The notes under the pieces were generated by a model that had not been told where the DNA came from, made no database searches, and saw only the letters and a program-made list of their open reading frames with translations. A program made the position numbers and the translations under genes. DNA of 58,852 bases from positions 1 to 58,852 of the forward strand of contig CAZWEJ010000002.1 in NCBI GenBank assembly GCA_964632435.1. Reading direction: 5' to 3'. Origin of the DNA: an uncultured Candidatus Saccharimonadales bacterium (GTDB lineage Bacteria > Patescibacteriota > Saccharimonadia > UBA4664 > SCTI01). Below, piece after piece: positions 23,450 to 56,893 of this stretch. The number at the start of each line of letters is the position of its first letter. The first letter of the stretch is position 1.

Positions 23450-23484
23450 ATTTTATATACTACCATTTTAGATCTGATAATATA

Positions 23485-28450: not shown

Positions 28451-28480
28451 ATACTACCTGATTAATAGCAAAACCGATAT

Positions 28481-31453: not shown

Positions 31454-31500
31454 ATTTCCCCTATTTGTAGTTACTATAAGCTTTTTCGAGTAGAATTAAA

Positions 31501-35274: not shown

Positions 35275-35278
35275 GATC

Positions 35279-35416: not shown

Positions 35417-35536
35417 ACTCGTAGTAGCATAGCCGAAAATCCTTCAAGAGTCAATCTGGTGGGTTTGAGTAAAAAATATGTTTTTCCCCTACTTACACAC
35501 CTTTTTCCACTATTCTGTATCTTATAGTGTTGTACC

Positions 35537-35575
35537 TGTGGACAAAAAAGGATATAAAAATGTAGTTGTGGACAA
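35537..35575 (-). promoter_or_regulatory. Two identical DnaA boxes (TTGTCCACA, 8/9 to TTATCCACA) upstream of dnaA
   Basis: tgtggacaa at 35537-35545 and again at 35567-35575, spaced 30 bp apart. Confidence 0.55.
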
Positions 35576-35631
35576 CCCACGTTCACGGTTATGATTGATA
35601 CAAACGTAGTGGTAAATAACGGTGGAGGTTT

Positions 35632-37014: not shown

Positions 37015-37301
37015 ACAGCCTGTTAATAAGCTGGGGGCGGTATGTTAAAAACATAACCGCTTTTTGTTTTGTTTCCACATGGGTGCAAAAGATACATAAC
37101 AATTTTGAACAGGATTTCCAAAGATTGCACACATATTGTGCACAAGATGATACAATTTTTACCCAGGCTAAATTAGCTGTTTCTTGGCTTAATGAAGCGT
37201 TAATTAAAATTTGTACCCAGTTTCCCCAACGACTATTACTACTGCAACTGAATAAAAAAATTATAAAGTATAATATTTAATACTGTGAGGATGTGGAAAC
37301 A
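37015..37301. other. Candidate oriC segment (dnaA-dnaN spacer) with DnaA-box-like 9-mers and an AT-rich unwinding region
   Basis: gTTTCCACA at 37071-37079 and its inverted copy at 37292-37300. TTGTGCACA at 37136-37144. A very AT-rich tract at about 37200-37285. Confidence 0.5.
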
Positions 37302-38408: not shown

Positions 38409-38434
38409 GCTCTCCCCCGAGAGTTTGACCGGAT

Positions 38435-39490
38435 ATGATCAGCCGGATTTCTTTAACTAATTTTCGCTCGTATAAGGATCAAGTATTCGACTTGGATCCT
38501 AATATCACGGTGGTTGTTGGTCCAAATGCGACCGGTAAAACCAATCTACTTGAATCTATTTTTGTTTTGGCGACAACAAAATCGTTTAGAGCTAAAGATC
38601 AAGAGCTTATCAATCATGATGCGCACTATTACCGAATTGTTGGTAAGAGCGATGATTCCGAATTGGCTCTGGGTTTTCAGGTTAGTCATCAAGGTAAGGA
38701 AAAGAGGGCTCAACGTGATGGTGCAAAACAGACATTAGTTCAACATATCGCCCACATTCAAACGGTTTTGTTTGAGCCAAATGATTTACAGTTAATCTTA
38801 GGTAGCCCGGATCGCAGGCGTAGGTATTTAGATTTTATTCTGACCCAAACTCAACCGCAGTATCTTTCAACTATGCATCGATATCGCAGGGTGTTGCAGC
38901 AGCGTAATTCCTTACTGTCTGATTGGCAGGGTCAAACCCAAGAACTGTTTGCTTGGAACGTTAAATTGACTGAGCTTGCGACCGATATTGATACCGCTCG
39001 TCGAGATTTAATTAAGCACATCAATGGAATCGCTAAGGATCTGTATAAAGACATTGCCGGAGCACCAGAAGATCTTGAGTTGACCTATATTGGTTCGGCA
39101 GACCCTAAAGATTACGCGAGCGATTTTCTTGCTAGCCTGGAGAGAAATATTGGGCGAGATGTTGGAGCCGGTTTTACCACAATTGGTCCACATCGCGACG
39201 ACTTTGATATCCGTTTTAAACGCTCTGATGTAACGGCTGTTGCCTCTCGTGGCGAGATGAGGACTATTGTGCTGGTATTGAAGCTTTCGGAGCTTAAATA
39301 TGTTGAGCAAAAAACTCAACGCTCCCCTATTTTGTTGCTCGATGATGTCTTTAGTGAGCTAGATGATAGCCGCCGTGAATATTTAATTGGGACTCTAAAT
39401 AAGTACCAGACTGTTATTACTACCACCGATGGTGACGTCGCCAGGCGACTTGGTAGTTCGCATGTTATTGAAACATCGGGGCTGGGTTAG
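38435..39490 (+). CDS. recF: DNA replication/repair protein RecF
   Basis: Walker A GPNATGKTNLLESI, signature region, Walker B ILLLDDVFSELD. Confidence 0.92.
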   Translation: MISRISLTNFRSYKDQVFDLDPNITVVVGPNATGKTNLLESIFVLATTKSFRAKDQELINHDAHYYRIVGKSDDSELALGFQVSHQGKEKRAQRDGAKQTLVQHIAHIQTVLFEPNDLQLILGSPDRRRRYLDFILTQTQPQYLSTMHRYRRVLQQRNSLLSDWQGQTQELFAWNVKLTELATDIDTARRDLIKHINGIAKDLYKDIAGAPEDLELTYIGSADPKDYASDFLASLERNIGRDVGAGFTTIGPHRDDFDIRFKRSDVTAVASRGEMRTIVLVLKLSELKYVEQKTQRSPILLLDDVFSELDDSRREYLIGTLNKYQTVITTTDGDVARRLGSSHVIETSGLG

Positions 39491-39493: not shown

Positions 39494-39742
39494 ATGCTTG
39501 AGCGGCCTAATGATTATCTCAAGAAGCGCGCAGATGAGCTTGGCCTTGATCGAGCTGATAAGTTGGCGGAAATTCAAGCTTACTTGGATGAGAAATATCC
39601 CGGAATGTGTCGAGCAGTTAGTTTGAATGATGGTGTATTGCGGATTGCGACTTCAAATTCAAGTGTTGCTAGCGAATTAAGATATAATAAACCACATTTT
39701 TTATATGTTCGATCAATAAAAATATCTATTACAAAGACTTAA
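39494..39742 (+). CDS. DUF721/DciA-like protein
   Basis: 82 aa, in the position immediately after recF. The VSLNDGVLRIATSNSSVASELR pattern is typical of DUF721. Confidence 0.55.
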   Translation: MLERPNDYLKKRADELGLDRADKLAEIQAYLDEKYPGMCRAVSLNDGVLRIATSNSSVASELRYNKPHFLYVRSIKISITKT

Positions 39743-41127
39743 TCAGTTTCATAGTCTTGATACTCTATAGGTATATTTGATGTATTAATACCAGTCTCCT
39801 TCAAAACATTATGAGCTTCTTGTCTATTTTTTTGAGTAAAGTTTGTATCTGGGCTTTCAGGTACCCGTATTATTATTTTTGTCGTACCGAAGTTATATAG
39901 TTCTATTTTGAAATTATCTTCATATAAAGGAAGAATCTTTATTAGGTTTGAAACATTAGAAGGTATCTGTACTTCGCCTTCTTTTTGAACTTTATAAAAA
40001 GCCGATTGATTGTCATCCGATGTTGAAAAGTAAATATTTTTAGCGTCGCTAGTCGTTGAGGTTATGGAGGCATTAAGAGGTGCATTAGTTATGAGGTAAG
40101 AATAATTTTTTAATGAATCGTAAATCCATAATTCTGAACCCTTTACGTAGGAAAGTTCATTTTCACTTATCCAATTAAGGTATTTAATATCTGGAGGAAG
40201 GTTCTTCTTCTTATTCAATTTGTTATCGGTGATAAACGCCTCATTTTCTGTTGTTATGGCAATCTTTGTTGAAGAAGGGTTAATTGATTTTTCAATTGCA
40301 GAGTATTCTTTTTCGAACTTAGTATTGTTTTCGAGGTTTGTCAGTATGGTTTTGTGCTTAAAATTAGAAATGCTTTCTTCTGATGAAGGCGGGACGCTTG
40401 ATATCAATAATATCTTATCCGAAGCAGAAACTGTCGGAGAATCTATTATGGTTTCAGTAACTTTTTTCCACCCTCCATTTGTATAGGACAATATTTCTTT
40501 ACCTGACGAAACAAATATATCCCCGACATTATTTATCGCTGCTGCATTTACAACCCTTCCACCTGTATCATATTGTCTGTACTGTCCATTGGTCATAGAT
40601 GAAAGTACGGTGTCACCATTTCGGTCACCCAGAAATATCCCATGGTTAGAATCTGCCCAATTGTAAAAATATATTCTTCCAAGATTGAGGTTTATTGTGG
40701 ATGGTTGGGTTGATTTTTCAGATAACGACATCAGGTAATCACTGTTATTGTCGACATACTGAAATGTATCCTTGTATTTGTTTATTCCTCTAGCTTCTAT
40801 ATTGAATAGTATTAAACTCTGCTCGGATTTAAGTTCTGGTATTTTAATTTCTTCTTTGCTACTTGCCTTTATATCTAAAACTTTTTCGAATTGCGATGTT
40901 GCAGTGCTTGCAGATACCGTATACGAACTGGGCTTGAGTCTAGTACTAAAAGACCCTCTTTTGTTAAGTATTTCGCTATTATCTTTGTTATTGATTATTC
41001 TAACGTCTGTTTCATTGGAGGCGGTGACTTGTAAAGTACCTTTTGACAATAGATTGAACGCAATAAAAACAAATATGCCAACTATAACAATCGTAACAAT
41101 TACATAAATGTACCTTTTACTTATCAT
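39739..41127 (-). CDS. Membrane-anchored extracytoplasmic protein, last gene of the T4SS-like operon (hypothetical)
   Basis: N-terminal TM helix (YVIVTIVIVGIFVFIAF). S/N/T-rich ectodomain. Markedly AT-rich. Its start overlaps the upstream stop. Confidence 0.6.
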   Translation of the reverse strand: MISKRYIYVIVTIVIVGIFVFIAFNLLSKGTLQVTASNETDVRIINNKDNSEILNKRGSFSTRLKPSSYTVSASTATSQFEKVLDIKASSKEEIKIPELKSEQSLILFNIEARGINKYKDTFQYVDNNSDYLMSLSEKSTQPSTINLNLGRIYFYNWADSNHGIFLGDRNGDTVLSSMTNGQYRQYDTGGRVVNAAAINNVGDIFVSSGKEILSYTNGGWKKVTETIIDSPTVSASDKILLISSVPPSSEESISNFKHKTILTNLENNTKFEKEYSAIEKSINPSSTKIAITTENEAFITDNKLNKKKNLPPDIKYLNWISENELSYVKGSELWIYDSLKNYSYLITNAPLNASITSTTSDAKNIYFSTSDDNQSAFYKVQKEGEVQIPSNVSNLIKILPLYEDNFKIELYNFGTTKIIIRVPESPDTNFTQKNRQEAHNVLKETGINTSNIPIEYQDYETD

Positions 41128-42383
41128 CGATCGGGTAAATTCTTATAAGCTTCATTAATTGCGGGCATAGGGTCAATAAGATTGGCATTAGCTGCTGGTC
41201 CTGGACGGGCAAAGTAACTATCCTGTCCTTTCTTTGTAACGTCAAAATGTACATGAGGGATGGTATTTTCAGCACATTGAACTGGCCCAATAGTTGCTAT
41301 GATGTCCCCTGCTTTAACTTTATCACCAACTTTTACTTTTAGGGACCCGGGTTTTAGATGTGCATAATAGAACCAATTGCCCTCATCTCCTTCGATGTGT
41401 ATTGCTGGAAACCCTCCGGGTCCTCCTGTACAGGGCTTCTCATTAACTTTTCTTACTGTGCCTTCTTTTGCAGATACGACTTTGTAACCCTCCTTAGGAC
41501 CTAAATCGGCGGCAAAATAATCATGATGACAGCTAGATGAATTGCCAGAATTTTTACAAGTCGGTTTTGTTAGGCCGCTTGGATAAGAGCTACCATAATC
41601 TTTTTTTGTTGCAACTACTGGAAATGCGAAACCGTCTGCGGTTAAGCCAATTCCACCATTTGAACCCGCACAGCTATCCCCAACACTACCGTTTACAGAT
41701 GATTGGTCTCCAGTTTTGAAGTATTTATATGCTTTAATAATTGAATTAACGTAGTCTTGGCTGTGGTTATAATCGTACGCTGCTGCTCTCAGTTCATTCT
41801 CATTTGCTCCCACTTTTCCCCCTACTGCTGCCAGATACTTTGCGGCACCATAAGCACCATCAACCAAGTCTTGAGCATCTGCTTTCCCATCGCCATTCCC
41901 GTCAACCTTGTAAGTTGCCCATGTACTTGGAATGAACTGGAAGGCGCCCATAGTACCGAATTGGTTCGTCGGCCAGTCAGCTCCATTACCATATGGTCTT
42001 GCGGGATCTCTCCATTTGCCATCACCGGTTGTTGGTGGTGGTTGGGCGGAGTCGGCATTATTAGTTGAATCACCAGTCCTTGAGTTTTCAGCATAGTAAA
42101 ATGCAGCCAAAAAGTTTGGATCTACATTGAATTTCTTCCCAGCGGCAACAAAAATCTTTTGTAATTTCTCCTGAGTAGCTTTCCTTAAGCCCTTTCCAAC
42201 AGTAGGAGAAATTGATCCACTCGCAACCACTTCGCCACCATTATTACATGCAAAGTCCTTATCATATTGCGTTGTATCAAGATTGACTCGCTGCCTATCA
42301 TTTTGAGAAATTGCGTAGGTTCGATTGATACTTATCGAGGAAAGAATAATTGCGAAAACAATGGGGATAATCAACTTTTTCAT
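41124..42383 (-). CDS. Secreted bifunctional peptidoglycan hydrolase: lytic transglycosylase (SLT-like) plus M23 (LytM) endopeptidase
   Basis: Signal peptide. SLT motifs AENS, GAFQFIPSTW and YDYNHS. M23 C-terminus YYAHL...G..V..GD.I...G....PHVHFD. Confidence 0.8.
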   Translation of the reverse strand: MKKLIIPIVFAIILSSISINRTYAISQNDRQRVNLDTTQYDKDFACNNGGEVVASGSISPTVGKGLRKATQEKLQKIFVAAGKKFNVDPNFLAAFYYAENSRTGDSTNNADSAQPPPTTGDGKWRDPARPYGNGADWPTNQFGTMGAFQFIPSTWATYKVDGNGDGKADAQDLVDGAYGAAKYLAAVGGKVGANENELRAAAYDYNHSQDYVNSIIKAYKYFKTGDQSSVNGSVGDSCAGSNGGIGLTADGFAFPVVATKKDYGSSYPSGLTKPTCKNSGNSSSCHHDYFAADLGPKEGYKVVSAKEGTVRKVNEKPCTGGPGGFPAIHIEGDEGNWFYYAHLKPGSLKVKVGDKVKAGDIIATIGPVQCAENTIPHVHFDVTKKGQDSYFARPGPAANANLIDPMPAINEAYKNLPDR

Positions 42384-45199: not shown

Positions 45200-47074
45200 T
45201 TACGCTCCGGCAGGACCTACCTGACCCTGCGCTTCCTGTTGATACTCTGTTGCCGCCTGCTGCTGGGCTATCTGCTGAGGACTAGTGCTAATAAGTTGAT
45301 GCTCAGTTTGAGAAGCTATTATTCGCATTACAACATGGTTGAGTCCTGCAAAAAATAGACCCTCTCCTACTGGAAATGTAGAAAGTCTCGCCTTTTCTTC
45401 GCTAGTTAATTTGAACGTCTCACCAACAATATCCACTGAGCTCGGCGCCTGCTTCAATAACAGCTGCAATGATGAGTTGGACACTACTGCCCGCCCCATT
45501 CTTGAACTCAAGAAGTCATCCACATCTTGAGAGATAGTGGTCAGCCCCAGAAGATACTTTCTCGCCCTCTTCGCAATACTGAACATAAAGTTGGCTGAGT
45601 CTTCGTATTTCATTAGCTGCCAGGCTTCGTCCACAACCAATATACGGCGCCTTTTGTCGGCCTTAACCTTGTTCCATATGTAATTAAGGATGATGTACAT
45701 TCCAACAGGTCTTAGTTCTTCTTCAAGATCGCGGATATTAAAGACAACGAATTTGTTATAGAGATCGACATTCGACTGCTCGCTAAAGATTCCTGCGAAA
45801 GTTCCACTGGTGTACTTACGCAGTCTTTGCGCCAAAGCTGGTCCATTACCACTCATCTCGGCAAGGGTTTTATATAGGTCGTTCATGGTAGGCGGAGTCG
45901 CGTTATGTGTTAAAGGATCATTCGTTATGCCCGCCTTGGCATACGTGTTGATTATAGCTACATCCAAGTCTGCATCTTCTGCAGGGGTAAGTGGCGCGGA
46001 TGTTGACCCCATCATTAATCGTAGAAGCCCATGCAAGGTAATTATGTTAGCCCTTAAGGCATTATCCGCATCCTCGCTGTCTAGAACGTGCGGTAGATCG
46101 AATGGGTTAAGTCGATTCTGAGACGCCAGACTAAGTCGTAAGTAGCTGCCTCCAACTGCATCTGCAAGTCCTCTATATTCATCCTCTGGGTCGATACAAA
46201 TAACTTCGGTACCAAGCATCAAGCTACGAAGAGCCTCAAGCTTAACCGCGAAACTTTTACCAGCACCAGACTTTGCGAATACAACCATGTTGGCGTTTTC
46301 AAGACTGAAGCGGTCGAACAAAACCAGTCCATTATTATGGCGGTTGATTCCATATAGAACTCCCTCATTTCGACTAAGCTCAGCAGATGTGAATGGAAAG
46401 CTGGTTGAAAGAGCGCCCGTGTTCATGTTCCTCGCGACACCAAGTTGATCAGCTGCCAAAGGCAGTGTTGAATTGAATGCCGGCTCCATCTGCATGGTAG
46501 CGGGCTTAGTATAGACCAGCGACTGACCCATGATGCCTTCAACTTTTCGTTGGATGTCCTTGAGATCATCTAAGCTGTCACCGTAAAGGGTTACATATAG
46601 ACCAAACCGGAAAAATCTCTCTTCTCCTACTTGTAGCTTATCCCTAAGTTCCTCTGCGTCAGAGATTGCTGCTTCTAGTCCCGGATCACGCACCCTGCCC
46701 TTCTCTTGGTTGATAGCGTAACTAGCTTCAAGCTGACCTACTTTTCTACGTAGATTATTAAGTACGACTTGACTTTCAACCGGATATATAAAGAGGCTCA
46801 TATCTATTACCTCATCAAGATTGATGATCGGGCTAAGCCAACCGGTGAAAATTTGGCGAGGATAACCGTAAACGTAGAGCGTACGAGCGAATCGAGTTCC
46901 AATCCTGATGTGGTCTCCCGCGATTTCAATTGAAGGTGGCGCAATTAGGTCCCGAAGACTTACAATTCCCTGTCGGTAGATCGCTTCGGCTTCCATCTGC
47001 TCACGCATACGCTGTTGCTGGGCAAGAGTAATGGGGTCGTTGGCCGCCTGTTTTTTACCTCCGAACATAGCCAC
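45200..47074 (-). CDS. virB4: VirB4/TrsE-family type IV secretion ATPase
   Basis: Walker A FAKSGAGKSF, Walker B RRILVVDEAWQL. N-terminal segment RTLYVYGYPRQIFTGWL is typical of VirB4-like proteins. Confidence 0.9.
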   Translation of the reverse strand: MAMFGGKKQAANDPITLAQQQRMREQMEAEAIYRQGIVSLRDLIAPPSIEIAGDHIRIGTRFARTLYVYGYPRQIFTGWLSPIINLDEVIDMSLFIYPVESQVVLNNLRRKVGQLEASYAINQEKGRVRDPGLEAAISDAEELRDKLQVGEERFFRFGLYVTLYGDSLDDLKDIQRKVEGIMGQSLVYTKPATMQMEPAFNSTLPLAADQLGVARNMNTGALSTSFPFTSAELSRNEGVLYGINRHNNGLVLFDRFSLENANMVVFAKSGAGKSFAVKLEALRSLMLGTEVICIDPEDEYRGLADAVGGSYLRLSLASQNRLNPFDLPHVLDSEDADNALRANIITLHGLLRLMMGSTSAPLTPAEDADLDVAIINTYAKAGITNDPLTHNATPPTMNDLYKTLAEMSGNGPALAQRLRKYTSGTFAGIFSEQSNVDLYNKFVVFNIRDLEEELRPVGMYIILNYIWNKVKADKRRRILVVDEAWQLMKYEDSANFMFSIAKRARKYLLGLTTISQDVDDFLSSRMGRAVVSNSSLQLLLKQAPSSVDIVGETFKLTSEEKARLSTFPVGEGLFFAGLNHVVMRIIASQTEHQLISTSPQQIAQQQAATEYQQEAQGQVGPAGA

Positions 47075-47820
47075 TAGAACGGTCCTCCTTGTGCCAACTG
47101 GGTCGGAGTTTGACCCTCGCCTTTTGTGACGGCCGCTGTCTGAATTTGACCGGCATCAACTAGCTTCTGATTGGCTGCTACATCTGGGTTGTAAGAGTTG
47201 TAGTAAAGATCAATCAACTCCTGGGTGTTTAGCGGAATATTCCGAATTCCCATTTGACTTAGCCCAGAAGCAACCAACTGTACACGTTGTGCAAGTTCAT
47301 CTTTAAATGCTTTAAAGTCTGCTTCACTCAAAGTTGTTACTAACTGTTTTTTAAATACTCCTGCAAGCCCACTGGCAATGTTCTTTTTCTTTAAAGTCGC
47401 CATCGCAGGTGGAAAAAAAGGAACGACGACATAGAACTGCTTATCCATTATGTTAACTTCATTGACGAGTGCCTGAATATTGGCAATGTAATCGTCCATC
47501 AACATTCCGAGAAGCTCGTTATCTTGATTAGTGCGTAGGTTTTGAAGCTTGGCTATATATCCCTCGAGATCAATTTTTTGAGACCTTATCATTATCTGTA
47601 TTGGGAAATGGAGCGAGTTTAAGAAGCTTTGGTATGCGTACTCAACAGCATCCCTTTCACTTGGGCTCATTAGGTCGAAGTTAATAGCGCTACCCATTAT
47701 TACTGCTCGCAAACTACCGTCGCGCATAACAACAATCCCATCCCTTATCTCAGATATGAGCAGGGTGTCTTGTGTGCTTGGACGTGGTGTTTTTTGTTGT
47801 GGTTGATTTTGTGTTGCCAT
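47074..47820 (-). CDS. T4SS-associated soluble protein, possibly a detached VirB4 N-terminal domain
   Basis: 248 aa. Its stop overlaps the virB4 start by 1 nt. The segment DGIVVMRDGSLRAVIMGSAINFDLMSPSERDAVEYAYQSFLNSLHFPIQIMIRS resembles N-termini of long Gram-positive VirB4 proteins (from memory). Confidence 0.55.
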   Translation of the reverse strand: MATQNQPQQKTPRPSTQDTLLISEIRDGIVVMRDGSLRAVIMGSAINFDLMSPSERDAVEYAYQSFLNSLHFPIQIMIRSQKIDLEGYIAKLQNLRTNQDNELLGMLMDDYIANIQALVNEVNIMDKQFYVVVPFFPPAMATLKKKNIASGLAGVFKKQLVTTLSEADFKAFKDELAQRVQLVASGLSQMGIRNIPLNTQELIDLYYNSYNPDVAANQKLVDAGQIQTAAVTKGEGQTPTQLAQGGPF

Positions 47821-48719
47821 TAACGAACCTGTACCGTTTGACCTTCCGACATTGTTTGCACACGCTGCGCTTGGGCAGCAATTTGTGCGACCGTTAAATC
47901 TCCGCCCTCATTAGCTAGCTTAAGTATATCACCAGATGTGGGGGCTGTCATTTCGCTTGTGTTTGAGGTGGCCGCAGTCTTTTTTGCTTTGCTCGATCTT
48001 ATAGTTGATCCCGGCGTCGGAGTTGGCGATGAAGGAACGCTTTTCATTTTCTCCATCGCTTCCTCTCGCACACTTTTTACAGTATTTTCTATCAATACGT
48101 TTAATTCTTGTGCAGACTGGGAGTTATTATTAAGAATATCGTCTTCATTTGTGACCGAAGGATAAATTTGTTGACTTTGGGGCTGAGGAGAAATTAGCTC
48201 AGCAGGAGTTACTGGTATCGGTGCCTGGCTCAATACTTCGGCGCCAATTCTTCCCTGCAGGTCTACAACCGGTACGACCTCAGGTTCTTGCACCTCTGGC
48301 TCTTTTGCTGACCAGCCTCGAGTATCAACAAGTTCAGCTAGCTGTTGCAGCTGGCTTCTGACTTCACCCGGGTCCCTTTGCATTATTTCTTGCTTTGGAG
48401 GCGGCGGTTCGACTCGAAATACTTCGGCAATCGGCTCCTTTTCCCAAAACCTAATTCGGGGTCGAGTAAAATACGACGCTACGGCAATTACGTATGTTTC
48501 TAGAGGTTGATCCTCTTTTTGATAAAGTCCAAGTGCCAGCAAGAAGAGGGCCGGTGGTATTCCTATGATCACCCATAGAAATATAACCTGTTGAAGGAGC
48601 GCAAAGGTAATAAAGCCATATCCAATCCCAATGAGAGCATATATGAACTGTTTGAGCGAAAGAGGTCCGAGGATTTTATCCTCTGACTCAACATTCTGTG
48701 GAACCTTATAGGTGCCCAT
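47820..48719 (-). CDS. PrgI/VirB3-like membrane protein with long P/Q/S/T-rich C-terminal extension
   Basis: Starts MGTYKVPQNVESEDKILGPLSLKQFIYALIG, followed by two TM helices (PrgI-family pattern). AGGAGG sits just upstream of the ATG at 48719. Confidence 0.6.
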   Translation of the reverse strand: MGTYKVPQNVESEDKILGPLSLKQFIYALIGIGYGFITFALLQQVIFLWVIIGIPPALFLLALGLYQKEDQPLETYVIAVASYFTRPRIRFWEKEPIAEVFRVEPPPPKQEIMQRDPGEVRSQLQQLAELVDTRGWSAKEPEVQEPEVVPVVDLQGRIGAEVLSQAPIPVTPAELISPQPQSQQIYPSVTNEDDILNNNSQSAQELNVLIENTVKSVREEAMEKMKSVPSSPTPTPGSTIRSSKAKKTAATSNTSEMTAPTSGDILKLANEGGDLTVAQIAAQAQRVQTMSEGQTVQVR

Positions 48720-48775
48720 CACCCTCCTCAATTCTTATGCTTATTTTACAGTGATATCTTCCCAGATGCCACCAT

Positions 48776-50980
48776 CTAAAGGCCCAATCGATATTCAATG
48801 TCCGCCCAGTCATCCTCCTGCTCCAGTAGGTGAATCGCGTCTCTATGGGATGCAATATTTGCATTTACCATTGCCATAATCTCGTTGAACTTGCGCTGAC
48901 CCTCTGCTGTATCGGTAAACGATGCTTTATTACGCGCCATCGCTTTAAGAAGTGCCGCTCTTTTATCCGCCCCCATAAAGTTCCTTCTGTCGGCTGGGTC
49001 AAAGTTGTCTTCAATTGAGTGTGGAAGGTATTCGCCTAGAACTTGAGCCCACTGTGCCGAAACTCGCTTAGCGGTTGGCGAACTATTAGGAGTATTATCT
49101 GCAGCAATGTTAAAGTTATCGATTTTGAAATCGTCACCTGCAACCTTAAATGGTGTGAGCCCGGAAAGGAAGCTCTTTGCCATACCTGAATTTACATCTC
49201 CCATAATTGTTGGGTCTCCTGTTAAAGGATTTACCTTAGTCGGTATGTCGCTATCAAACCGAGCAAACTGTCCTGGAGATTTAGGAAGATTCTTGCCATT
49301 TTCTTTAAGGACCATCTTAAAGTCTTCGGGGTGGCCAAAACCTTGAACAGCGTTAGAAACCTCTGTGCCGAGCAAGTTATTTTCCGCCAATCTCCTTACC
49401 ATGGCCTGCCTTCCCTCAAATGTTCTCGTGTATCCAAGGAGTGATTCGCCGCCATTTGCCTTGAGTCCACTTAAGGCTTCCTTTTTCTGAGTCGAATCTC
49501 CGTAATAGCTCATAAGCGCACGGCGCTGATTCATCATGTCGGCTTCTTTCATATCGCCAAGTTCGTCGGAGTACTTTTTAACAAGCTTTGAAGCATCGCG
49601 TTGTCTTGCGAGGGAGCTACCACTATGGCCCGCAAGAAGTAACGTACCCGCGTGATACATGCCCTTTCCTGCAGTGCTCACTACCTTATTGTCGCTACCT
49701 GTCAAACTACTTAATTTATCTCCCACCTTGCCTACACGCTTGAGTTGTCGGCTCTTGGTTTTGTTTTTGGCATCCTCGTACATCTGGCTGTCTTTGATCT
49801 TTCCACGACCCTTCTTCCCAAGATCATCAATTGCGGAACCAGCTGCACTCATAAATCCACCGGCCCATCTGAAAGATTGAGTAACAGCGCCAAATGCTGC
49901 CACAAGTATCAATATTTTTATGAGAGATGTTGCAATATTCTGAGACACACTCCCCCCAGCTCCTCCAGATTCTGCTGTAAGTGGAATTAGCGAACCGACA
50001 TTAGCCGCTACCGCAAGCAACCCTATGATTATCGGGTACATTAAAGAAATCTTCACAAATGATTTTAGCCACTGATTAAAGTACTTTTCTGTATTTGGCA
50101 GTACCCATGCTGCAAAAGCTAAAGGCGAAACAACTATAAATAACCCGATCAAAAAGTAGCGCATCGCCAAAGTAAAGATGAAAGCTGCTACCGAAACAAC
50201 CACCATAAGCGCGATCGGAACAGCTAGAGGAGCTGCGAGTAATAGCAAAACAGACAATGTGACAATTCCGAATACAGTCGCAACATTTTCAATTATCATC
50301 CCCGAGTTAAAGGCATCGGGTGATGTGCCGCCTCCAACAACAGAATTTATTATTGCACCAACGCCCTGGCCAAGGATATTGCCTATATCAACAATGATTG
50401 CCGAGACTAAGTATGAGGCTTGAACAAATATTGCTGCAGCAACAAGCTTTGGCAGAATACTCTTAAAGTTGTATGAATCCAAGTTGCTCGGAATAATATA
50501 CGAAAAAATCATTACCATAAAAATAATCACAAATGAAATGTTTGCGAGAGTCCTCACAGCATTCCATGTTTCGTAAATTGGGCCCTCAAATTTTAACGGC
50601 TCAACTTCTAAGAATTGATGCATCATGTCCGTTACTGCATCAGACATAATGTTTGCAACGTTGTCTAGGATGGGACACATCATAAAAGCAAGTCGACCGT
50701 TTTGTTCACTACAGGTTTCGTAATTATCTTTTACCTGGTCTTTGAGGTCTTGTTTGTTTTGAGGCTTATTGCTCCCCGGAGCCTCAACAAGTGGAGGTGC
50801 CTCGGTGTTTGGTATGGTTGTTTCTGGTGGGGTCTCTCCAAGTGGTGCTTGAGCAAAGGCATACCCACCGGTAAATACCGATGCCTCATGTGAAGCGGCA
50901 CTGTGGCTAAAAATATGGCCGATTGATGGTTGAATCAAGACCAAAAAAATAGCTAGCGCCCAGGTTTGAATCAGCCGCAT
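48776..50980 (-). CDS. Extended VirB6/TrbL-like polytopic channel protein, paralog 1
   Basis: Signal peptide, small ectodomain, about 6-7 TM helices and a hydrophilic C-terminal tail of about 330 aa. Shares blocks with 51050-53509 (for example ILPKLVAAAIFVQASY vs ILPKLIVAAILIQMSY). Confidence 0.65.
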   Translation of the reverse strand: MRLIQTWALAIFLVLIQPSIGHIFSHSAASHEASVFTGGYAFAQAPLGETPPETTIPNTEAPPLVEAPGSNKPQNKQDLKDQVKDNYETCSEQNGRLAFMMCPILDNVANIMSDAVTDMMHQFLEVEPLKFEGPIYETWNAVRTLANISFVIIFMVMIFSYIIPSNLDSYNFKSILPKLVAAAIFVQASYLVSAIIVDIGNILGQGVGAIINSVVGGGTSPDAFNSGMIIENVATVFGIVTLSVLLLLAAPLAVPIALMVVVSVAAFIFTLAMRYFLIGLFIVVSPLAFAAWVLPNTEKYFNQWLKSFVKISLMYPIIIGLLAVAANVGSLIPLTAESGGAGGSVSQNIATSLIKILILVAAFGAVTQSFRWAGGFMSAAGSAIDDLGKKGRGKIKDSQMYEDAKNKTKSRQLKRVGKVGDKLSSLTGSDNKVVSTAGKGMYHAGTLLLAGHSGSSLARQRDASKLVKKYSDELGDMKEADMMNQRRALMSYYGDSTQKKEALSGLKANGGESLLGYTRTFEGRQAMVRRLAENNLLGTEVSNAVQGFGHPEDFKMVLKENGKNLPKSPGQFARFDSDIPTKVNPLTGDPTIMGDVNSGMAKSFLSGLTPFKVAGDDFKIDNFNIAADNTPNSSPTAKRVSAQWAQVLGEYLPHSIEDNFDPADRRNFMGADKRAALLKAMARNKASFTDTAEGQRKFNEIMAMVNANIASHRDAIHLLEQEDDWADIEYRLGL

Positions 50981-51049
50981 TAAGATGCTATTACCTCATT
51001 AAGACGAATAGATAATAGTACCTTATCTGTTGGACAGATTCAAGGAGAG

Positions 51050-53509
51050 CTACGAAGTGAAGGTTACTGTGCCGCCGCTGGTATTTGAGCCGGGTCTTGT
51101 TGGTCCTGATCCGGAACCAGGAGCGGTTGGGGCTCCGGTGATGTAGGCATCTGGTCGCTTATACTCTACCCCTGCTTGATCACGGCGAGTAGATGGATCC
51201 GCGTGTGCAGGCAATGCTGAGGACCCACTCACATATTGCATATGTCCTGCTATATGACTACTGTGTTGTCCTAGTTCACCCCTGTCCGCAAGCTCTTTTA
51301 ATGTTCCTAGTGCTCTACGATTGAAATTGCTTCTTAAGCCAGGGCTTGAAGAGATAGAATCGAATATTGCACCTATATTAGCGTGTCTTTGCTCAAGTGT
51401 TTCTCCGCTCCCCATATTATCCCCTCGAGCATATCTTTCTATAGTAGTAGGGTCTAGATCTCCAAAGTCACCTGGCTTTATAGAACTCAATGCTTCGAAT
51501 CCACCGCTGCCCCTTGTGATATCGGGAGCAGCGCTATCAATATCCCCATAGGCACTGTTGACTGCATCTCCGTACAACTGCTGCCCACCTGGTGCTGCAA
51601 GCATACTTCTTATGGTTTCATAGTCTCTGTATTGTGCTAATTTCTTAATTGCGAATTTTCTCGAAGCTGCATCTGCTCTGTAGCCCTTAGCTGTTCCACT
51701 TGCAATGGCAGTAAGGAGGCTCTTTTTCTGTGGAAAACTACTTCTTGCGGTGTCGTTTTCGAACTGCCTCTCAACGGCTTTCTGATCTTGATCAAATAGT
51801 TTGTTTTGAGCAGTCCCCACTCGGTTTCTGGCCTTAGCGGAATTCCATAAAAAGCCTCCTCCCGCAATTTTATTTTGCCATCTAGCTTTTGGACTGAAGC
51901 CAGTGATATTGGGATTGTAAGCTCTAAGAGCCCGATTTTTTCTGTCTTCGATTCGATCTTTATTCCAATCGCTTCCCTGGATACCTTTACTAGCTTTTGA
52001 ACCAGCTTTAGTGGTAACCTCCCCAATCTTTTTCATCATTCCTCCTGCCCATGAAAATGTGAATGGAACGGCAAGCAGCGGAAGTGCCAAACATAGCATT
52101 GCAACAATTGGACCTATAGACTGAACAACCACTGTCGAATTAACGCTTAATGCAGATATTGCTGCAATTCGGCCCGCTGCAAAAAGAAGAATAATTAGTG
52201 GATACATCAAGAGTAGCCTAATAAAGAGGTCCATCCATTTTCTAAACAAGTTTTCGGTATTTGGTAGTGCCATTGCTGCAATAGCTATAGGGGCGCTCAA
52301 AACCAGTAAAACTAAGAGTACCTGCCTTAAAACAAGTGTTAACATCACCGCCGCTATACCTATAACCATCGGCAGAGCCGCCGCAAAAACACCAACAGCG
52401 GCAATTTGTGCGGTAAGCGCAATAGTTATTAATGTTGCCGCACCGAACATTACAAAACCGCCGATAATCTTCGCTTCTCCAGCTGCCTCATATCTAATAT
52501 TGGGCATTATTTCGACCACGATATCACGCAAGCCCTTGCCCAGAATATTTGTGACATCAATTGCAGCTGCCATTAAGACATATGACATCTGAATCAATAT
52601 TGCCGCCACGATTAATTTCGGTAATATCTTCTTTGCGTTGTAGGCTTGTATGGAAAACAGGTTTCCAAAAATTACCACCATAAATACGATTACAAAGAAT
52701 ACGTTTGCTAGACTTCTCATCACATTCCAAGCTGCATATTGAGGGTTATCGCTAGAGCTTGTATTGAAGGAAAGCGGATCCACTTCAAACATAGGGGCAA
52801 TTAGTTTTGTCTCAACAAAGCCTACAAACTCTGAGAAAACCTTTATTAATCCACAGACGACCCAGCCGAATCCTCCTTCCGTTGTACAGGCATTTTGAGC
52901 TTCTTCCTCAGGGGATGCTCCGGAGTCATTTGAGTCATTAGAGTCATTACTGTTTCTTTGGCCTACCCTTGCTTTAAATCTATCTAGTACATCTCCCTTA
53001 GTAGCGTTTAATATTTGGATATTTTTTTCCCCGCCACGACCGCTAAGGCCATCAGGGGCACAATTTCGACCAATTGCAGTTAGCGTAGAAGCAACAATTT
53101 TTCCTGTAAATTTCTCCTTAGAATCAAAATTCTCACTTAGTTGGATGTCTACGTCGAACCAATGAGTCTCCATTATCTGATCCGACTCATCGCCTGAACC
53201 ATAACAATTTATTTCACCGCGATATTTAGCAATCTTGGTATTCTTGTTATAACCTTCAGAACCGTTTGCTAGTAAAAAGTCATATTTTTGACCCTGTTTT
53301 CCCCACCCGACGGCGTGGATTGTGGCGTTTCTTAATCCAGCTGGATTTCCAGATCTTATGGCCTCTTTAATTATTCCTGCTTGATCTTTGTCATAGGCAA
53401 AGATGTACATTTCCTCAGCTTGAGCCTGAGTTGCAAGCTGAGGGATAAGTAAGAATGCAATTGCACCAATGAGTGCAAAAACGGTTCTTTTTATAAGGCC
53501 CACCTTCAT
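51050..53509 (-). CDS. Extended VirB6/TrbL-like polytopic channel protein, paralog 2
   Basis: Probable start MKVGLIKRTVFALIGAIAFLLIP (the ORF extends to 53566). Ectodomain of about 200 aa, a TM bundle and a hydrophilic tail of about 320 aa. Confidence 0.65.
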   Translation of the reverse strand: MKVGLIKRTVFALIGAIAFLLIPQLATQAQAEEMYIFAYDKDQAGIIKEAIRSGNPAGLRNATIHAVGWGKQGQKYDFLLANGSEGYNKNTKIAKYRGEINCYGSGDESDQIMETHWFDVDIQLSENFDSKEKFTGKIVASTLTAIGRNCAPDGLSGRGGEKNIQILNATKGDVLDRFKARVGQRNSNDSNDSNDSGASPEEEAQNACTTEGGFGWVVCGLIKVFSEFVGFVETKLIAPMFEVDPLSFNTSSSDNPQYAAWNVMRSLANVFFVIVFMVVIFGNLFSIQAYNAKKILPKLIVAAILIQMSYVLMAAAIDVTNILGKGLRDIVVEIMPNIRYEAAGEAKIIGGFVMFGAATLITIALTAQIAAVGVFAAALPMVIGIAAVMLTLVLRQVLLVLLVLSAPIAIAAMALPNTENLFRKWMDLFIRLLLMYPLIILLFAAGRIAAISALSVNSTVVVQSIGPIVAMLCLALPLLAVPFTFSWAGGMMKKIGEVTTKAGSKASKGIQGSDWNKDRIEDRKNRALRAYNPNITGFSPKARWQNKIAGGGFLWNSAKARNRVGTAQNKLFDQDQKAVERQFENDTARSSFPQKKSLLTAIASGTAKGYRADAASRKFAIKKLAQYRDYETIRSMLAAPGGQQLYGDAVNSAYGDIDSAAPDITRGSGGFEALSSIKPGDFGDLDPTTIERYARGDNMGSGETLEQRHANIGAIFDSISSSPGLRSNFNRRALGTLKELADRGELGQHSSHIAGHMQYVSGSSALPAHADPSTRRDQAGVEYKRPDAYITGAPTAPGSGSGPTRPGSNTSGGTVTFTS

Positions 53510-53587
53510 AAGCATAAGTGTAATAGATTTTTTGATGGAATGCATCTGGTGTGTAAAAAAGGTCAAATCTGTAATAGAATAAGCGCA

Positions 53588-54034
53588 ATGAAAAAAATAA
53601 TACTTTTTGCAATAGTAGTGCTCTTTACAGCACTAAATACTGCGCCAGTTAAAGCCTTTTCTTATGGTGTGCAATCCGAAAACGGATTTAAGCTATCCGC
53701 ACTTACTGCTAAGCAGTGTAGAGAAAAAGGTGGTGTGCCAGTCAGTGGAGTGTTTGGTCCAGATACAAACTGTATTGGTAGCGGAAGCCAGAATCCTATT
53801 TTTGCTATGATCTCAATTTTTCTGCAATTCGCAATTGCTATGTTCGCCCTGAGTTTAGTTGCAATACTTGTTTTCGCGGGCATTAGATATATTGCGTCCG
53901 GAGGGAACCCCGATGATGTAAAGGAAGCAAAAAATCTAATCAAGGCAGTTCTTACCGCCTTAGTTCTATTTGCTATCATGTTTGCAGTTCTTAGGTTGAT
54001 AATACCCGAAGGCGTTGGAGTATTTCGTACATGA
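53588..54034 (+). CDS. VirB2/TrbC-like T4SS pilin paralog 1
   Basis: Signal peptide MKKIILFAIVVLFTALNTAPVKA, 2 Cys, then TM-GIRYIASGGNPDDVKEAK-TM. Confidence 0.75.
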   Translation: MKKIILFAIVVLFTALNTAPVKAFSYGVQSENGFKLSALTAKQCREKGGVPVSGVFGPDTNCIGSGSQNPIFAMISIFLQFAIAMFALSLVAILVFAGIRYIASGGNPDDVKEAKNLIKAVLTALVLFAIMFAVLRLIIPEGVGVFRT

Positions 54035-54321
54035 AGTTAGCACAGGTGGTACCAAGTTTATATCGGGGTGTAGACAAATTCGATAGCATTAATGACTTCC
54101 TAATAATTCTTGCCAACCTTATTCAAATAGGCCTCTTCTTATCAGGAGTTCTTGCTGTGATATTTATTTCATGGTCAGGAATACAGTACATTACGTCTCA
54201 GGGTGATCCAGGAAGAGTTCAATCTGCAAAAAGTGGTATGCGTAATGCCGTCGTTGGCCTTGTGCTCGCGGCCGGGTCCTACCTATTAGTAAATTTCTTT
54301 GCAAGGCAGCTTTTAGGATGA
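54031..54321 (+). CDS. VirB2/TrbC-like pilin paralog 2 (short, no obvious signal peptide, no Cys)
   Basis: TM-GIQYITSQGDPGRVQSAK-TM. ATGA overlap with paralog 1. Confidence 0.7.
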   Translation: MKLAQVVPSLYRGVDKFDSINDFLIILANLIQIGLFLSGVLAVIFISWSGIQYITSQGDPGRVQSAKSGMRNAVVGLVLAAGSYLLVNFFARQLLG

Positions 54322-54695
54322 AAAAGATATCACTAGGCTTTATGGGGCTTGCATACTTTATTTTTGTGCCTGCAGCAAGAGCGGCTGACAAGTGCTATGA
54401 CTCGAGCGGTAAATTACAGGACTACTGTAAGCTAGACAAGGCGGAAACACTTGGGTTTGTGGACCAATCATTTACCACTGTTGCCACAAATATAGTTAAT
54501 ATACTAGGGATCATAGCTGGTGTACTCTCAGTGCTTTTCTTGATCATTGGCGGAATCAGCTACATTACTTCCGAGGGAGATCCGGCAAAGCTTAAGGGGG
54601 CAAAAAGTACCGTGCTTTATGCCGTGATTGGTTTGGCGGTTTCAATTTTAGCCCCGCTTATAGTAGGTTATGTGTTAGAATTCAGTCCCAAGTAG
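54318..54695 (+). CDS. VirB2/TrbC-like pilin paralog 3
   Basis: Signal peptide, a CYDSSGKLQDYC loop, then TM-GISYITSEGDPAKLKGAK-TM. Confidence 0.75.
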   Translation: MKKISLGFMGLAYFIFVPAARAADKCYDSSGKLQDYCKLDKAETLGFVDQSFTTVATNIVNILGIIAGVLSVLFLIIGGISYITSEGDPAKLKGAKSTVLYAVIGLAVSILAPLIVGYVLEFSPK

Positions 54696-54732
54696 CTTTA
54701 CACCACAGATTGCAACAGATACAATTTTGGTA

Positions 54733-55194
54733 ATGGTTAACTTTTTTAAAAGATATATATTTATATCAATATTTGCTTTAGGGTGTATTTCGTTAATTCC
54801 GGCAGTTGCCTCTGCCGAGAACGCCATCAATACAAGCATTTGTAAAAGCTTTTATGATGCTCAAAAGAATCTGGATCCAGGCGAAAAGAAAGCCAATCCG
54901 CCAGCTGGTTGTGAAGGTCAGAATCCGGGTGGGCAGCTTCTTGATAAAGTTCAAGGGGATCCAAGTGGAGCCGGGTATATAAAAACTCTATTAAATGGGT
55001 TTATTTACGCCGCCGGAATCGTTTGTCTTATTTTCCTTCTCCTTGGCAGCATTCGGTACCTCACATCAAGCGGCAACTCTGCTCGAATTCAACAGGCAAA
55101 AGATACCGTGTTATACTCAATTATCGGATTAGTAATTGTTGCGTTAGCAATCCCAATATCCGATTATGTAATAGGTATATTTCGGCAACCATGA
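54733..55194 (+). CDS. VirB2/TrbC-like pilin paralog 4
   Basis: Signal peptide, 2 Cys (SICKS...PAGCEG), then TM-SIRYLTSSGNSARIQQAK-TM. The ORF track begins at TTG 54727. Confidence 0.75.
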   Translation: MVNFFKRYIFISIFALGCISLIPAVASAENAINTSICKSFYDAQKNLDPGEKKANPPAGCEGQNPGGQLLDKVQGDPSGAGYIKTLLNGFIYAAGIVCLIFLLLGSIRYLTSSGNSARIQQAKDTVLYSIIGLVIVALAIPISDYVIGIFRQP

Positions 55195-55541
55195 AAACCA
55201 AACTTTTATACTCAGCAGCACTAATTCAAACCTTAATTCCTGCATCAGCCCTTGCAGTTGATACAGACTCTCAGTGTGAGGGTGCCCAGGCGGTTGGTGG
55301 AGCTTGCACTAAGGCTGGGCTCGATGCCTCACTAGAAAGGATCCTCTCAACGCTTTTCTTTATAATTGGATCTATAGCAGTTATTTTTCTGTTGATCGGG
55401 GCCATTCGTTATATTACCTCTACTGGAGACGCCACAAGAATAAAGCAAGCTAAAGATACTATTTTTTACGCCATAGCTGGGCTTATTGTTGCTATCGTGG
55501 CACAGGCGCTAGTAAGCTTTGTAATATCGAGGCTGAGTTAA
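55191..55541 (+). CDS. VirB2/TrbC-like pilin paralog 5
   Basis: In-frame start MKTKLLYSAALIQTLIPASALA at 55191 (ATGA overlap). A CEGAQAVGGAC loop, then TM-AIRYITSTGDATRIKQAK-TM. Confidence 0.75.
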   Translation: MKTKLLYSAALIQTLIPASALAVDTDSQCEGAQAVGGACTKAGLDASLERILSTLFFIIGSIAVIFLLIGAIRYITSTGDATRIKQAKDTIFYAIAGLIVAIVAQALVSFVISRLS

Positions 55542-55951
55542 TGAAGAAACTTTTATCTGTTTTATTGACGCTAACATTCACAGCTACTCTCTTCTCGCCA
55601 GTGTCCAGTCTTGCTGCTTTAACTGCTACCGAAAAACAATTGTGCACAGGGAGCAATAATCAAGTTGTTGGAACGGGACCAGATGAAAAGTGTGTACCTA
55701 AAACCGGAAAAACACTTACTGGCGCAGATAGTTATCTGACGGATATTATTAATTTACTTCTATTTCTAGCGGGAGCTATAGCTGTTATCGTCATTATTAT
55801 AGGTGGCATTAGGTATATAACCTCCACTGGCGATGCAATGAGAATTAAACAGGCCAAAGATACTATTTTGTACGGTATTGTTGGGTTGATCATCGCAATT
55901 TTCGCTTACGCAATCGTAAATAGCCTTGTGTGGCAATTAACAGGAACCTAA
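55541..55951 (+). CDS. VirB2/TrbC-like pilin paralog 6
   Basis: Signal peptide, a C...C loop of 20 residues, then TM-GIRYITSTGDAMRIKQAK-TM. Confidence 0.75.
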   Translation: MKKLLSVLLTLTFTATLFSPVSSLAALTATEKQLCTGSNNQVVGTGPDEKCVPKTGKTLTGADSYLTDIINLLLFLAGAIAVIVIIIGGIRYITSTGDAMRIKQAKDTILYGIVGLIIAIFAYAIVNSLVWQLTGT

Positions 55952-56304
55952 TGAGAAAAACCAAATTTGTGATTTATAGCTTGTTATTATTTCCCTCTTT
56001 TGCCCTTGCCCAATTAGGCGAAGGCGTTGACTCAACGAAACCACCGGTAAATGCGGAAGGAAAAGAAGTTGTGCCAACAAATCTATGGCAAGAGATTGAT
56101 ACAATAACCAACCTTTTACTTTTTTTAGCAGGTGCAGTAGCAGTAATAGTGATAATTTTTGGTGGATTTAGGTATATTACCTCTACGGGAGATCCGGCAA
56201 GAGTTAAGCAGGCAAAGGATACAATAGTCTATGGCATCATTGGGTTGATAGTAGCAATCCTTGCCTACGCTATTGTGCGTTTTATAACCACCCAACTCAA
56301 ATAA
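55951..56304 (+). CDS. VirB2/TrbC-like pilin paralog 7 (no Cys)
   Basis: Start MRKTKFVIYSLLLFPSFALA at 55951 (TAATG overlap). TM-GFRYITSTGDPARVKQAK-TM. Confidence 0.75.
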   Translation: MRKTKFVIYSLLLFPSFALAQLGEGVDSTKPPVNAEGKEVVPTNLWQEIDTITNLLLFLAGAVAVIVIIFGGFRYITSTGDPARVKQAKDTIVYGIIGLIVAILAYAIVRFITTQLK

Positions 56305-56316
56305 AGCATAACAGGT

Positions 56317-56344
56317 TTGATTTTAATCTGGAGCGTGGTATACT
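56317..56344 (+). promoter_or_regulatory. Sigma70-like promoter for pilin paralog 8
   Basis: TTGATT, a 16-nt spacer, then TGG-TATACT (extended -10), about 40 nt upstream of ATG 56383. Confidence 0.4.
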
Positions 56345-56382
56345 CGGCTCAAAGATAGGAATTAACCATAAAAAGGAAAAAA

Positions 56383-56799
56383 ATGAATTTATCAGTATCA
56401 TCAGCTATAGAAAAAGCCGGAAAAGGAGCTATCTATCTAGGTACTTTTATGCCGGTTGCGGCTCTAGCTCAAACAGAACCAACCTGTAACCCTCAAACAG
56501 GAGGAGCAACAGGTGGCGCAGATTGCGCGAAGGCAACATCACAACCTGAATCATTGTTCGCAACGGGAGGAGTCTTCCAGACAGTTTCAAACGTTCTCAT
56601 TTTCTTGGTGGGAGCGGTTGCTGTTATCATGCTCATCTGGGGTGGATTACAATATGTCATATCTGCCGGCGATTCGAAGAGGGTCGAAAGTGCAAAAAGT
56701 ACCATTCTCTATTCCATAATAGGAATTGTAGTTGCACTTCTTGCATTTGCGATTGTAAACTTTGTTACCACGCAGTTAAGTGCAACTCCAACAACTTAG
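56383..56799 (+). CDS. VirB2/TrbC-like pilin paralog 8
   Basis: Signal peptide, a CNPQTGGATGGADC loop, then TM-GLQYVISAGDSKRVESAK-TM. Confidence 0.75.
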   Translation: MNLSVSSAIEKAGKGAIYLGTFMPVAALAQTEPTCNPQTGGATGGADCAKATSQPESLFATGGVFQTVSNVLIFLVGAVAVIMLIWGGLQYVISAGDSKRVESAKSTILYSIIGIVVALLAFAIVNFVTTQLSATPTT

Positions 56800-56823: not shown

Positions 56824-56847
56824 ACCCGCTTCGGCGGGTTTCTTTTT
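56824..56847 (+). terminator. Rho-independent terminator ending the pilin array
   Basis: ACCCGC-ttcg-GCGGGT followed by TTCTTTTT. Confidence 0.75.
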
Positions 56848-56893
56848 GCTCCATTGTCAACTTCCAACGCCTCCAACCAACTTCCTCCACCAC

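Follow-up and report, generated by a model that had tools for sequence, protein, structure and literature searches.

Why would a bacterium of a host-dependent lineage keep eight divergent copies of a pilin-like gene side by side? The question is raised by a tandem array at positions 53588-56799 of a 58852 nt stretch of DNA from an uncultured Candidatus Saccharimonadales bacterium (contig CAZWEJ010000002.1 of assembly GCA_964632435.1; the whole stretch is called the window here). A prediction made from the sequence alone had read the array as eight VirB2-like pilin paralogs with a conserved membrane hairpin and hypervariable tips, and had offered a heteropolymeric filament, host-range-specific tips, or antigenic and phage-receptor diversification as possible reasons for their number. 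Our answer is that the eight genes are probably the VirB2-like pilin set of a chromosomal, origin-proximal, monoderm-type type IV secretion system (T4SS) that is conserved across Ca. Saccharimonadia, assembled in the manner proposed below. By gene order they correspond to the array reported to be essential in Southlakia epibionticum, and as an account of their number, heteromeric, non-redundant subunits fit best.

All eight genes are intact open reading frames (ORFs) of 96-153 amino acids (aa) on the + strand, at the coordinates first proposed. We call them P1-P8, and list them with the cysteines of the tip (the part between the signal peptide, where there is one, and the first helix) and with their scores against protein family hidden Markov models (HMMs). 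The Pfam gathering scores are 26.6 bits for PF18895 (T4SS_pilin) and 27.9 bits for PF04956 (TrbC/VirB2), and the equivalog cutoff of NF045849 is 40 bits.

53588..54034, + strand: P1, 148 aa, signal peptide, long tip, Cys44/Cys62; PF18895 24.2 bits (E 3.7e-5), below 26.6; NF045849 E 9e-5
54031..54321, + strand: P2, 96 aa, leaderless, no cysteine; PF18895 39 bits; ATGA overlap with P1
54318..54695, + strand: P3, 125 aa, signal peptide, Cys26/Cys37; PF18895 52.1 bits, PF04956 25.1 bits; ATGA overlap with P2
54733..55194, + strand: P4, 153 aa, longest tip, Cys37/Cys60, conserved PP(A)GC; PF18895 40.3 bits
55191..55541, + strand: P5, 116 aa, Cys29/Cys39; PF18895 40.6 bits; ATGA overlap with P4
55541..55951, + strand: P6, 136 aa, Cys35/Cys51; PF18895 40.4 bits, PF04956 28.9 bits; TAATG overlap with P5
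55951..56304, + strand: P7, 117 aa, signal peptide, no cysteine; PF18895 56 bits, NF045849 40.1 bits; TAATG overlap with P6
56383..56799, + strand: P8, 138 aa, Cys35/Cys48, last pilin gene; PF18895 45.7 bits

PF18895 is matched by all eight, with P2-P8 above the gathering score (39-56 bits) and P1 just under it. PF04956 is passed by P6, nearly reached by P7 (25.8 bits) and P3, matched well under the gathering score by P8 (18.1) and P2 (14.5), and not matched by P1, P4 or P5. NF045849, the Mbov_0395 family of Mycoplasma integrative and conjugative elements (ICEs), also matches all eight (E 2e-10 to 9e-5) with nearly its whole 80-residue model aligned; P7 alone reaches the cutoff, the other seven scoring 22-35 bits, and on these scores the eight pilins are related to that family but are not equivalogs. 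The three sets of matches cover the whole hairpin and are mutually consistent. Together with the predicted topology and the gene context they support, at HMM and context level, the call of eight VirB2-like T4SS pilins with a two-helix hairpin.

The last ~70 residues align readily across the paralogs, with hairpin identities of 19-71% (the closest pair being P6/P7), and the N-terminal parts are essentially unalignable, with 12-34% identity over the few positions that can be aligned. P1, the pilin-like gene closest to the VirB6-like gene, is the most divergent (17-24% full-length identity to the seven others). In the loop between the helices Y, S, G, A and K are invariant in all eight, and the net charge is 0 to +2. 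The loop motif that had been described with a leading G-x holds as written in only six of the eight, A and S replacing the leading G in P1 and P2; shortened by those two positions it holds in all. Seven paralogs have a signal peptide ending in an AxA-type site (that of P8 has a long n-region and a weak h-region), and, as had been claimed, the N-terminus of P2 is not signal-peptide-like. Hydrophobic segments and charges, from hydropathy and start-site analysis, agree with the membrane topology proposed below. An AlphaFold2 model of P7 (65 homologues) has helices at 45-76 and 82-116 with a predicted local distance difference test score (pLDDT) above 90, and an N-terminal part of low confidence.

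To place the array among its relatives, an HMM built from the eight paralogs and 120 homologues was scanned over 80 VirB4-anchored loci from species-representative genomes, the prevalence count being limited to the 51 species-level loci that extend 8 kb or more upstream of VirB4. A divergent pilin array was found in 44 of these 51. Those that are complete comprise between 3 and 9 genes, most often 6, and eight genes lie at the high end of this range. Eight genes, all intact, are likewise present in a sister species (L091) and in a more distant relative, L001, whose VirB4 is 87% identical; in both they are one-to-one positional orthologues of P1-P8. Both species keep the leaderless, cysteine-free P2, the absence of cysteine from P7, the unusual P8 N-terminus, and several paralog-specific tip motifs, for example AKQCR[DE]KGGVP in P1, PP(A)GC in P4 and GKTLTG.DSYLT in P6. 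More widely, genes with P1 as their best match in the window are always first in their array (22 arrays) and those with P2 as best match always second (11 arrays); the strongest cross-species matches are those of P8 (e.g. 140 bits to the more distant relative). About one short (~100 aa), leaderless, cysteine-free member is present per array across Saccharimonadia, at position 2 or 3; in the 39 arrays of at least five genes such members fall 13 times at index 2 and 28 times at index 3.

These comparisons bear on whether the extra copies are in use at all. A single functional gene among decaying duplicates might explain why P1 falls under the Pfam cutoff and why P2 has neither signal peptide nor cysteines. 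However, the frameshifts in other strains that would mark such decay are absent, all eight genes being intact in every contig that covers them. Both relatives have intact orthologues of all eight, the P1 and P2 types are conserved over dozens of species, and hairpin identity to the sister species is still 80% at saturated synonymous divergence (dS). We regard decay as very improbable.

Rates were compared between the window and the sister species. Identity is 80% for hairpins, 49% for tips and 42% for signal peptides, and nonsynonymous divergence (dN) is 0.15, 0.44 and 0.55, respectively; tips thus evolve ~3 times faster than hairpins, yet no faster than signal peptides. The dN/dS comparison of tip and hairpin that had been suggested as a check could be made in part: dS is saturated against both relatives, so only dN is comparable, and same-species strains are too alike for usable ratios. 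Since tip dN is not above signal-peptide dN, there is no sign of diversifying selection. The word hypervariable suits the tips when paralogs are compared, and overstates the difference between orthologues, which is only moderate.

Within the species, the array is 99.8-100% identical in ten contigs from several samples, one poly-A artefact aside. At window positions 54591-54601, in P3, one metagenome contig (L084) has nine mismatches, all to A, in 11 nt; this looks like an assembly artefact and not true variation. Between paralogs, DNA similarity is at most 72%. Recent duplication or gene conversion was considered and rejected, the best inter-paralog repeat being only 158 nt at 68-72% identity; by this measure the paralogs are old, with no homogenisation under way. 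Neither repeats nor substrates for recombination were found inside the array.

Such stability is hard to reconcile with the proposal that the paralogs are interchangeable surface variants, of which only one or a few would be in use at any moment, suited to different host strains or allowing escape from phages and host defences, in the manner of Anaplasma and Bartonella. That proposal, which PMC12102498 also suggests, gains from tips that cannot be aligned between paralogs and that outpace the hairpins between species, and from two internal promoter-like gaps (described below) that could permit differential expression. It would not lead one to expect near-identity among strains, or that each paralog keeps its position, cysteine pattern and tip motifs across species. 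The tip dN is what relaxed constraint alone would give, most of the genes are coupled by start/stop overlaps, the array is without the internal repeats or recombination substrates that variation could draw on, and all six genes of the S. epibionticum array score as essential on a single host. We consider it quite unlikely, and the antigenic or phage-receptor diversification offered in the original prediction fits poorly for the same reasons.

The cysteines carry a second pattern. As had been noted, six of the eight paralogs have exactly two tip cysteines, 10-23 residues apart, and P2 and P7 have none at all; P4 has two more outside the tip, one in the signal peptide and one in the first transmembrane helix. 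Among 262 pilins the tip cysteine count is even in 258, i.e. odd in 4 where ~115 would be expected if cysteines were scattered independently. The counts are 0 (46 pilins), 1 (3), 2 (166), 3 (1), 4 (20), 6 (16), 8 (6), 10 (3) and 16 (1). Cysteine accounts for 4.1% of the residues in tips and 0.08% of those in hairpins, and an independent set of homologues has even counts in 100 of 113. An even-number cysteine bias in exported proteins is a classical genomic signature of disulfide bonding. The parity thus supports the suggestion that the tip is a disulfide loop and would extend it to the whole family; in the literature searched we found no mention of the even-cysteine pattern.

Five of the junctions between the genes are overlaps, three ATGA and two TAATG, as first counted. 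The remaining two are gaps, 37 nt long at P3/P4 and 78 nt long at P7/P8. Of 206 junctions examined across arrays, 62 overlap in the -4 or -1 manner. Start/stop overlaps join most of the genes, which favours co-expression. Three signals stand between or after the genes, all of them putative.

54697..54725, + strand: promoter-like TTTACA-17-TACAAT in the P3/P4 gap, 10 of 12 matches, both hexamers identical in the sister species and the more distant relative
56317..56344, + strand: promoter-like TTGATT-16-TATACT, preceded by TG, in the P7/P8 gap, conserved in the sister species, with the -10 hexamer and downstream bases also in the more distant relative
56824..56849, + strand: terminator-like hairpin and T-run 3' of P8, ending the pilin operon

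The claim that P8 has its own promoter stands as far as a conserved promoter-like site in the P7/P8 gap goes, the number of such sites in the region being no higher than in shuffled sequence. The site in the P3/P4 gap (54697-54725) had been missed, and is the better of the two. In 33 of 40 arrays the last pilin gene is set off from the one before it by 40 nt or more; in S. epibionticum the distance is 83 nt. With five overlaps, two conserved internal promoter-like gaps and one terminator, the + strand genes form one operon.

The divergent, - strand neighbours of the array identify the machine to which the pilins would belong.

51050..53566, - strand: VirB6/TrbL-like polytopic membrane protein (precomputed PF19590 TrbL_3; 831 aa from the gene callers' start at 53545), in the position of SEML1_0013
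48776..50980, - strand: second VirB6/TrbL-like membrane protein, 734 aa (precomputed PF19590 TrbL_3)
47820..48731, - strand: PrgI (VirB3-like); PF12666 49.5 bits
47074..47820, - strand: TrsD/TraD-like protein resembling the VirB4 N-terminal domain; NF041427 E 1.4e-9, far under the model cutoff
45200..47074, - strand: VirB4-like ATPase of the monoderm CD1110 type; NF045971 363 bits (cutoff 325), PF19044
42380..45193, - strand: 937 aa protein inside the T4SS cluster, no family match, in the position of SEML1_0007
41124..42383, - strand: cell-wall hydrolase with matches to SLT transglycosylase and M23 peptidase domains, putative VirB1/PrgK role
39739..41127, - strand: 462 aa protein with no family match in library scans, at the cluster end closest to the replication origin
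recF 38435-39490, dnaN 37293-38408 and dnaA 35632-37014, + strand: directly past the T4SS cluster

The pilin genes lie 6.5-9.7 kb from VirB4. The VirB4 of the window is 87-97% identical to that of uncultured Ca. Saccharimonadia/Saccharimonadales metagenome-assembled genomes, and homologues of P7 bear the names Saccharimonadia or Patescibacteria; the source lineage is thus Ca. Saccharimonadia, in agreement with the host-dependent lineage first suggested. With recF, dnaN and dnaA directly beyond the cluster, the T4SS locus abuts the replication origin. It begins 250 nt past recF, as in S. epibionticum ML1; rnpA and yidC follow on the - strand beyond dnaA, the stretch from yidC to recF occupying window positions 34064-39490, and the window spans the chromosomal origin region at ~35.35-35.63 kb. 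Downstream of the pilins are an Hsp20 gene (- strand), a ComF-like phosphoribosyltransferase gene and a tRNA-Ser gene.

Of the five large or unassigned neighbours, four had no match in Pfam scans; for the rest the scans gave only weak sub-threshold matches. The two large membrane proteins at 48776-53566 had no significant match in current Pfam-A, unlike the precomputed TrbL_3 assignments for both, a mismatch that probably reflects differing Pfam releases. Calling them VirB6-like draws on those precomputed matches and on the published structure-based annotation of their ML1 counterparts.

The resulting system is not a diderm VirB/D4 (MPF-T) one: it has PrgI, TrsD, a CD1110-type VirB4 and an SLT+M23 hydrolase, and no match to the VirB7, VirB8, VirB9, VirB10 or VirB11 families was found among the scanned ORFs of the window. 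With canonical VirB2/TrbC/TraA pilins of diderm T4SSs, the array has in common a signal peptide, two hydrophobic helices, a short basic loop, and VirB4 and VirB6 encoded alongside. It differs in the monoderm-type machinery, in having eight paralogs instead of one, and in the long, cysteine-paired N-terminal ectodomain. That ectodomain also has no counterpart in NF045849, whose 80-position model aligns to the hairpin alone. The neighbouring VirB4, like the pilins, matches a Mycoplasma ICE model (NF045975, 243 bits). We know of no tandem arrays of the NF045849 family, although no search was made for them. The matches to Mycoplasma ICE families hint that VirB2-like hairpin proteins may be native to some monoderm (MPF-FATA-like) T4SSs and not borrowed from diderms. 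PMC12102498, by contrast, treats VirB2-like proteins as absent from MPF-FATA systems.

A locus of this design has been studied genetically. In S. epibionticum ML1, Wang et al. (2023, Cell; PMC10633639) reported an essential T4SS encoded by SEML1_0006-0019. Their Table S1 runs from dnaA, dnaN and recF through VirB4 (0008), 0009, PrgI (0010), 0011 and 0013 to six + strand pilin genes (0014-0019), Hsp20 (0020), K02242/ComFC (0021) and tRNA-Ser (0022); their Table S2 assigns PF18895 to the pilin genes. By transposon sequencing all six pilin genes were scored GD/ES/ES, the insertion count per gene falling from 11-15 in the input DNA to 0-2 once the cells had grown out (PMC10633639). The window has the same order over SEML1_0001-0022: dnaA-dnaN-recF, hydrolase, large unknown protein, VirB4, TrsD-like protein, PrgI, VirB6-like proteins and divergent pilins, followed by opposite-strand Hsp20, the ComF-like gene and tRNA-Ser. 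The ML1 array is likewise all PF18895 with one short member of ~100 aa, and its last gene (SEML1_0019, annotated 'pilin') encodes 138 aa like P8, in the same position and with a gap of ~80 nt ahead of it in both. The loci differ in that ML1 has six pilin genes against eight; its short gene (103 aa) is third, whereas the leaderless P2 is second; its non-essential SEML1_0012 has no counterpart in the window; and the tRNA-Ser is on the opposite strand. The two arrays are likened by position and gene order, not gene by gene in sequence.

The phenomenon is therefore already known, and reported essential in a syntenic relative. The premise that proliferation of virB2 is known elsewhere only in Rickettsiales does not hold, arrays having been published for Patescibacteria (PMC10633639, PMC12102498, PMC12857230). 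Quiñonero-Coronel et al. (2025, Microb Genom; PMC12102498) described 441 VirB2 arrays, each of 2-11 genes, among 383 Patescibacteria assemblies. The arrays were most abundant in Saccharimonadia and Microgenomatia, and members of one array shared 25% identity on average; the window agrees with that description in its tandem PF18895/PF04956 genes near virB4, low identity and lineage. The idea of a solution convergent with that of intracellular pathogens is likewise in print, the same paper drawing the comparison with Bartonella and Anaplasma; a 2025 FEMS review discusses the Patescibacteria array as a possible pilus in a monoderm (PMC12857230). Since the arrangement has been published, the window is one more instance and leaves the general picture unchanged. 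What is added here is prevalence, positional orthology, the leaderless member, cysteine parity, strain identity, rates and gaps. The even-cysteine pattern, positional orthology, a universal leaderless member and conserved internal gaps are, to our reading, absent from PMC12102498, which leans to host-range versatility; our comparisons do not favour the latter.

The virB2 families of Rickettsiales (rvh), Anaplasma and Bartonella (PMC2653234, PMC3556328) are similar in having many divergent copies in a host-dependent bacterium. Their systems are of the diderm VirB/D4 type, and the copies are discussed in terms of antigenic variation, in contrast to the stable positional orthologues, start/stop overlaps and monoderm-type system of the window. 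The resemblance is an analogy, not membership.

Taken together, fixed positional orthologues, one leaderless member per array, even cysteine counts and a last gene behind its own promoter-like site suggest a heteromeric assembly that contains disulfides and speak against a set of antigenic variants, and of the reasons first offered for the number of genes the heteropolymer fits best. We propose the following assembly. Sec or YidC would insert the pilins so that both termini face outward and the basic loop is cytoplasmic; signal peptidase I would cut seven of the eight after the AxA-type site, and a disulfide would close the tip loop. The VirB4/VirB6 machine could then extract the pilins and build from them a single heteromeric polymer outside the cell, be it a pilus or a short conduit across the wall, with the conserved loop lining the lumen and the paralog-specific tips outside, by analogy with solved conjugative pili. 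P8, behind its own promoter-like gap, is a candidate for the bulk (major) subunit, and P1-P7, including the leaderless P2 type, may be low-abundance subunits for initiation, adaptation or the tip. Such a polymer might serve contact or exchange with the host bacterium. A stricter version, in which the array encodes an ordered, disulfide-stabilised heteropolymer of P8-type bulk subunits and about seven fixed-identity subunits, the leaderless one seeding or capping assembly, is possible and is put forward tentatively.

Several observations weigh against this proposal. No filament has been reported for any Patescibacteria T4SS, and a pilus is called a possibility only (PMC12857230); the essentiality of the upstream ML1 pilin genes could reflect polar transposon effects. 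No disulfide-forming enzyme was found among the larger ORFs of the window that were scanned against protein-family libraries. The assignment of major and minor roles and of promoters comes from sequence, and promoter-like sites in the region were not above chance (7 found, 8.5 expected from shuffled sequence), so that support for the two intergenic sites comes from their cross-species conservation. Comparison with solved pilins was no help either. A Foldseek search of the PDB with the P7 model gave a best E of 0.74, the matches being helical hairpins of a generic kind, ATP synthase subunit c and HtrII among them; searching PDB sequences with a profile returned no pilin and a chance match to MacB transmembrane segments; and hhalign of the pilin profile with single sequences gave a non-significant E of 0.052 for R388 TrwL and no match for F TraA. 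A two-helix hairpin is too simple for fold and sequence tools to discriminate, and these tests are therefore uninformative on pilin identity: the term VirB2-like draws on family HMMs, predicted topology and gene context, and the case for homology to canonical VirB2 on the Pfam and NCBIfam models alone.

The same results count in favour of the eight being unrelated small membrane proteins, holin-like for instance, that merely adjoin a T4SS: the fold search returns only generic hairpins, and no solved pilin is matched significantly. A PHROGs scan of the eight, made as a check on the holin-like alternative, gave no matches and therefore no holin family, while PF18895, PF04956 and NF045849 agree over the whole hairpin and synteny with VirB4 and VirB6 is strict in 44 of the 51 loci. 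We give this explanation next to no credence.

The main live rival is that the pilins remain in the membrane as T4SS parts, for example as a gate or as a VirB2-like ring or platform seated on the two VirB6-like proteins, with no polymer outside. Monoderm T4SSs are generally described without pili (PMC10633639, PMC12857230), the two adjoining VirB6-like proteins are unusually large, and all eight pilins match a pilin-like family of wall-less Mycoplasma ICEs for which no description of a pilus was found in the literature consulted. The exported, cysteine-paired, fast-evolving ectodomains with their paralog-specific motifs look surface-exposed, however, and eight distinct types seem more than a simple platform needs; that the family is named and modelled as pilins is annotation and not a test. 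We consider a membrane platform unlikely, and retain the extracellular heteromeric polymer as the working proposal.

Two other regions of the window may be recorded. Positions 17010-32622 have a GC content of 0.37-0.40 (0.42-0.49 elsewhere) and hold a surface-polysaccharide cluster with several GT1, GT2 and GT4 glycosyltransferases, a Wzm/Wzt-type ABC exporter, a flippase-like protein and methyltransferases. At 7617-13368 two large proteins with C-terminal dockerin domains adjoin a VanW and PG_binding_4 protein; Wang et al. (2023, PMC10633639) count a dockerin-domain protein among the envelope proteins that are essential in S. epibionticum.

Should the stricter version of the heteropolymer be true, the T4SS filament of Saccharimonadia would be a 'major plus minor pilin' system like type IV pili and the pseudopili of type II secretion, an arrangement that to our knowledge is new for VirB2 pili. 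Few machines have been shown to be indispensable to Saccharibacteria living as epibionts, and the T4SS with its pilin genes is one of them. The comparative details given here narrow the hypotheses and provide concrete targets for genetics in cultivable relatives.

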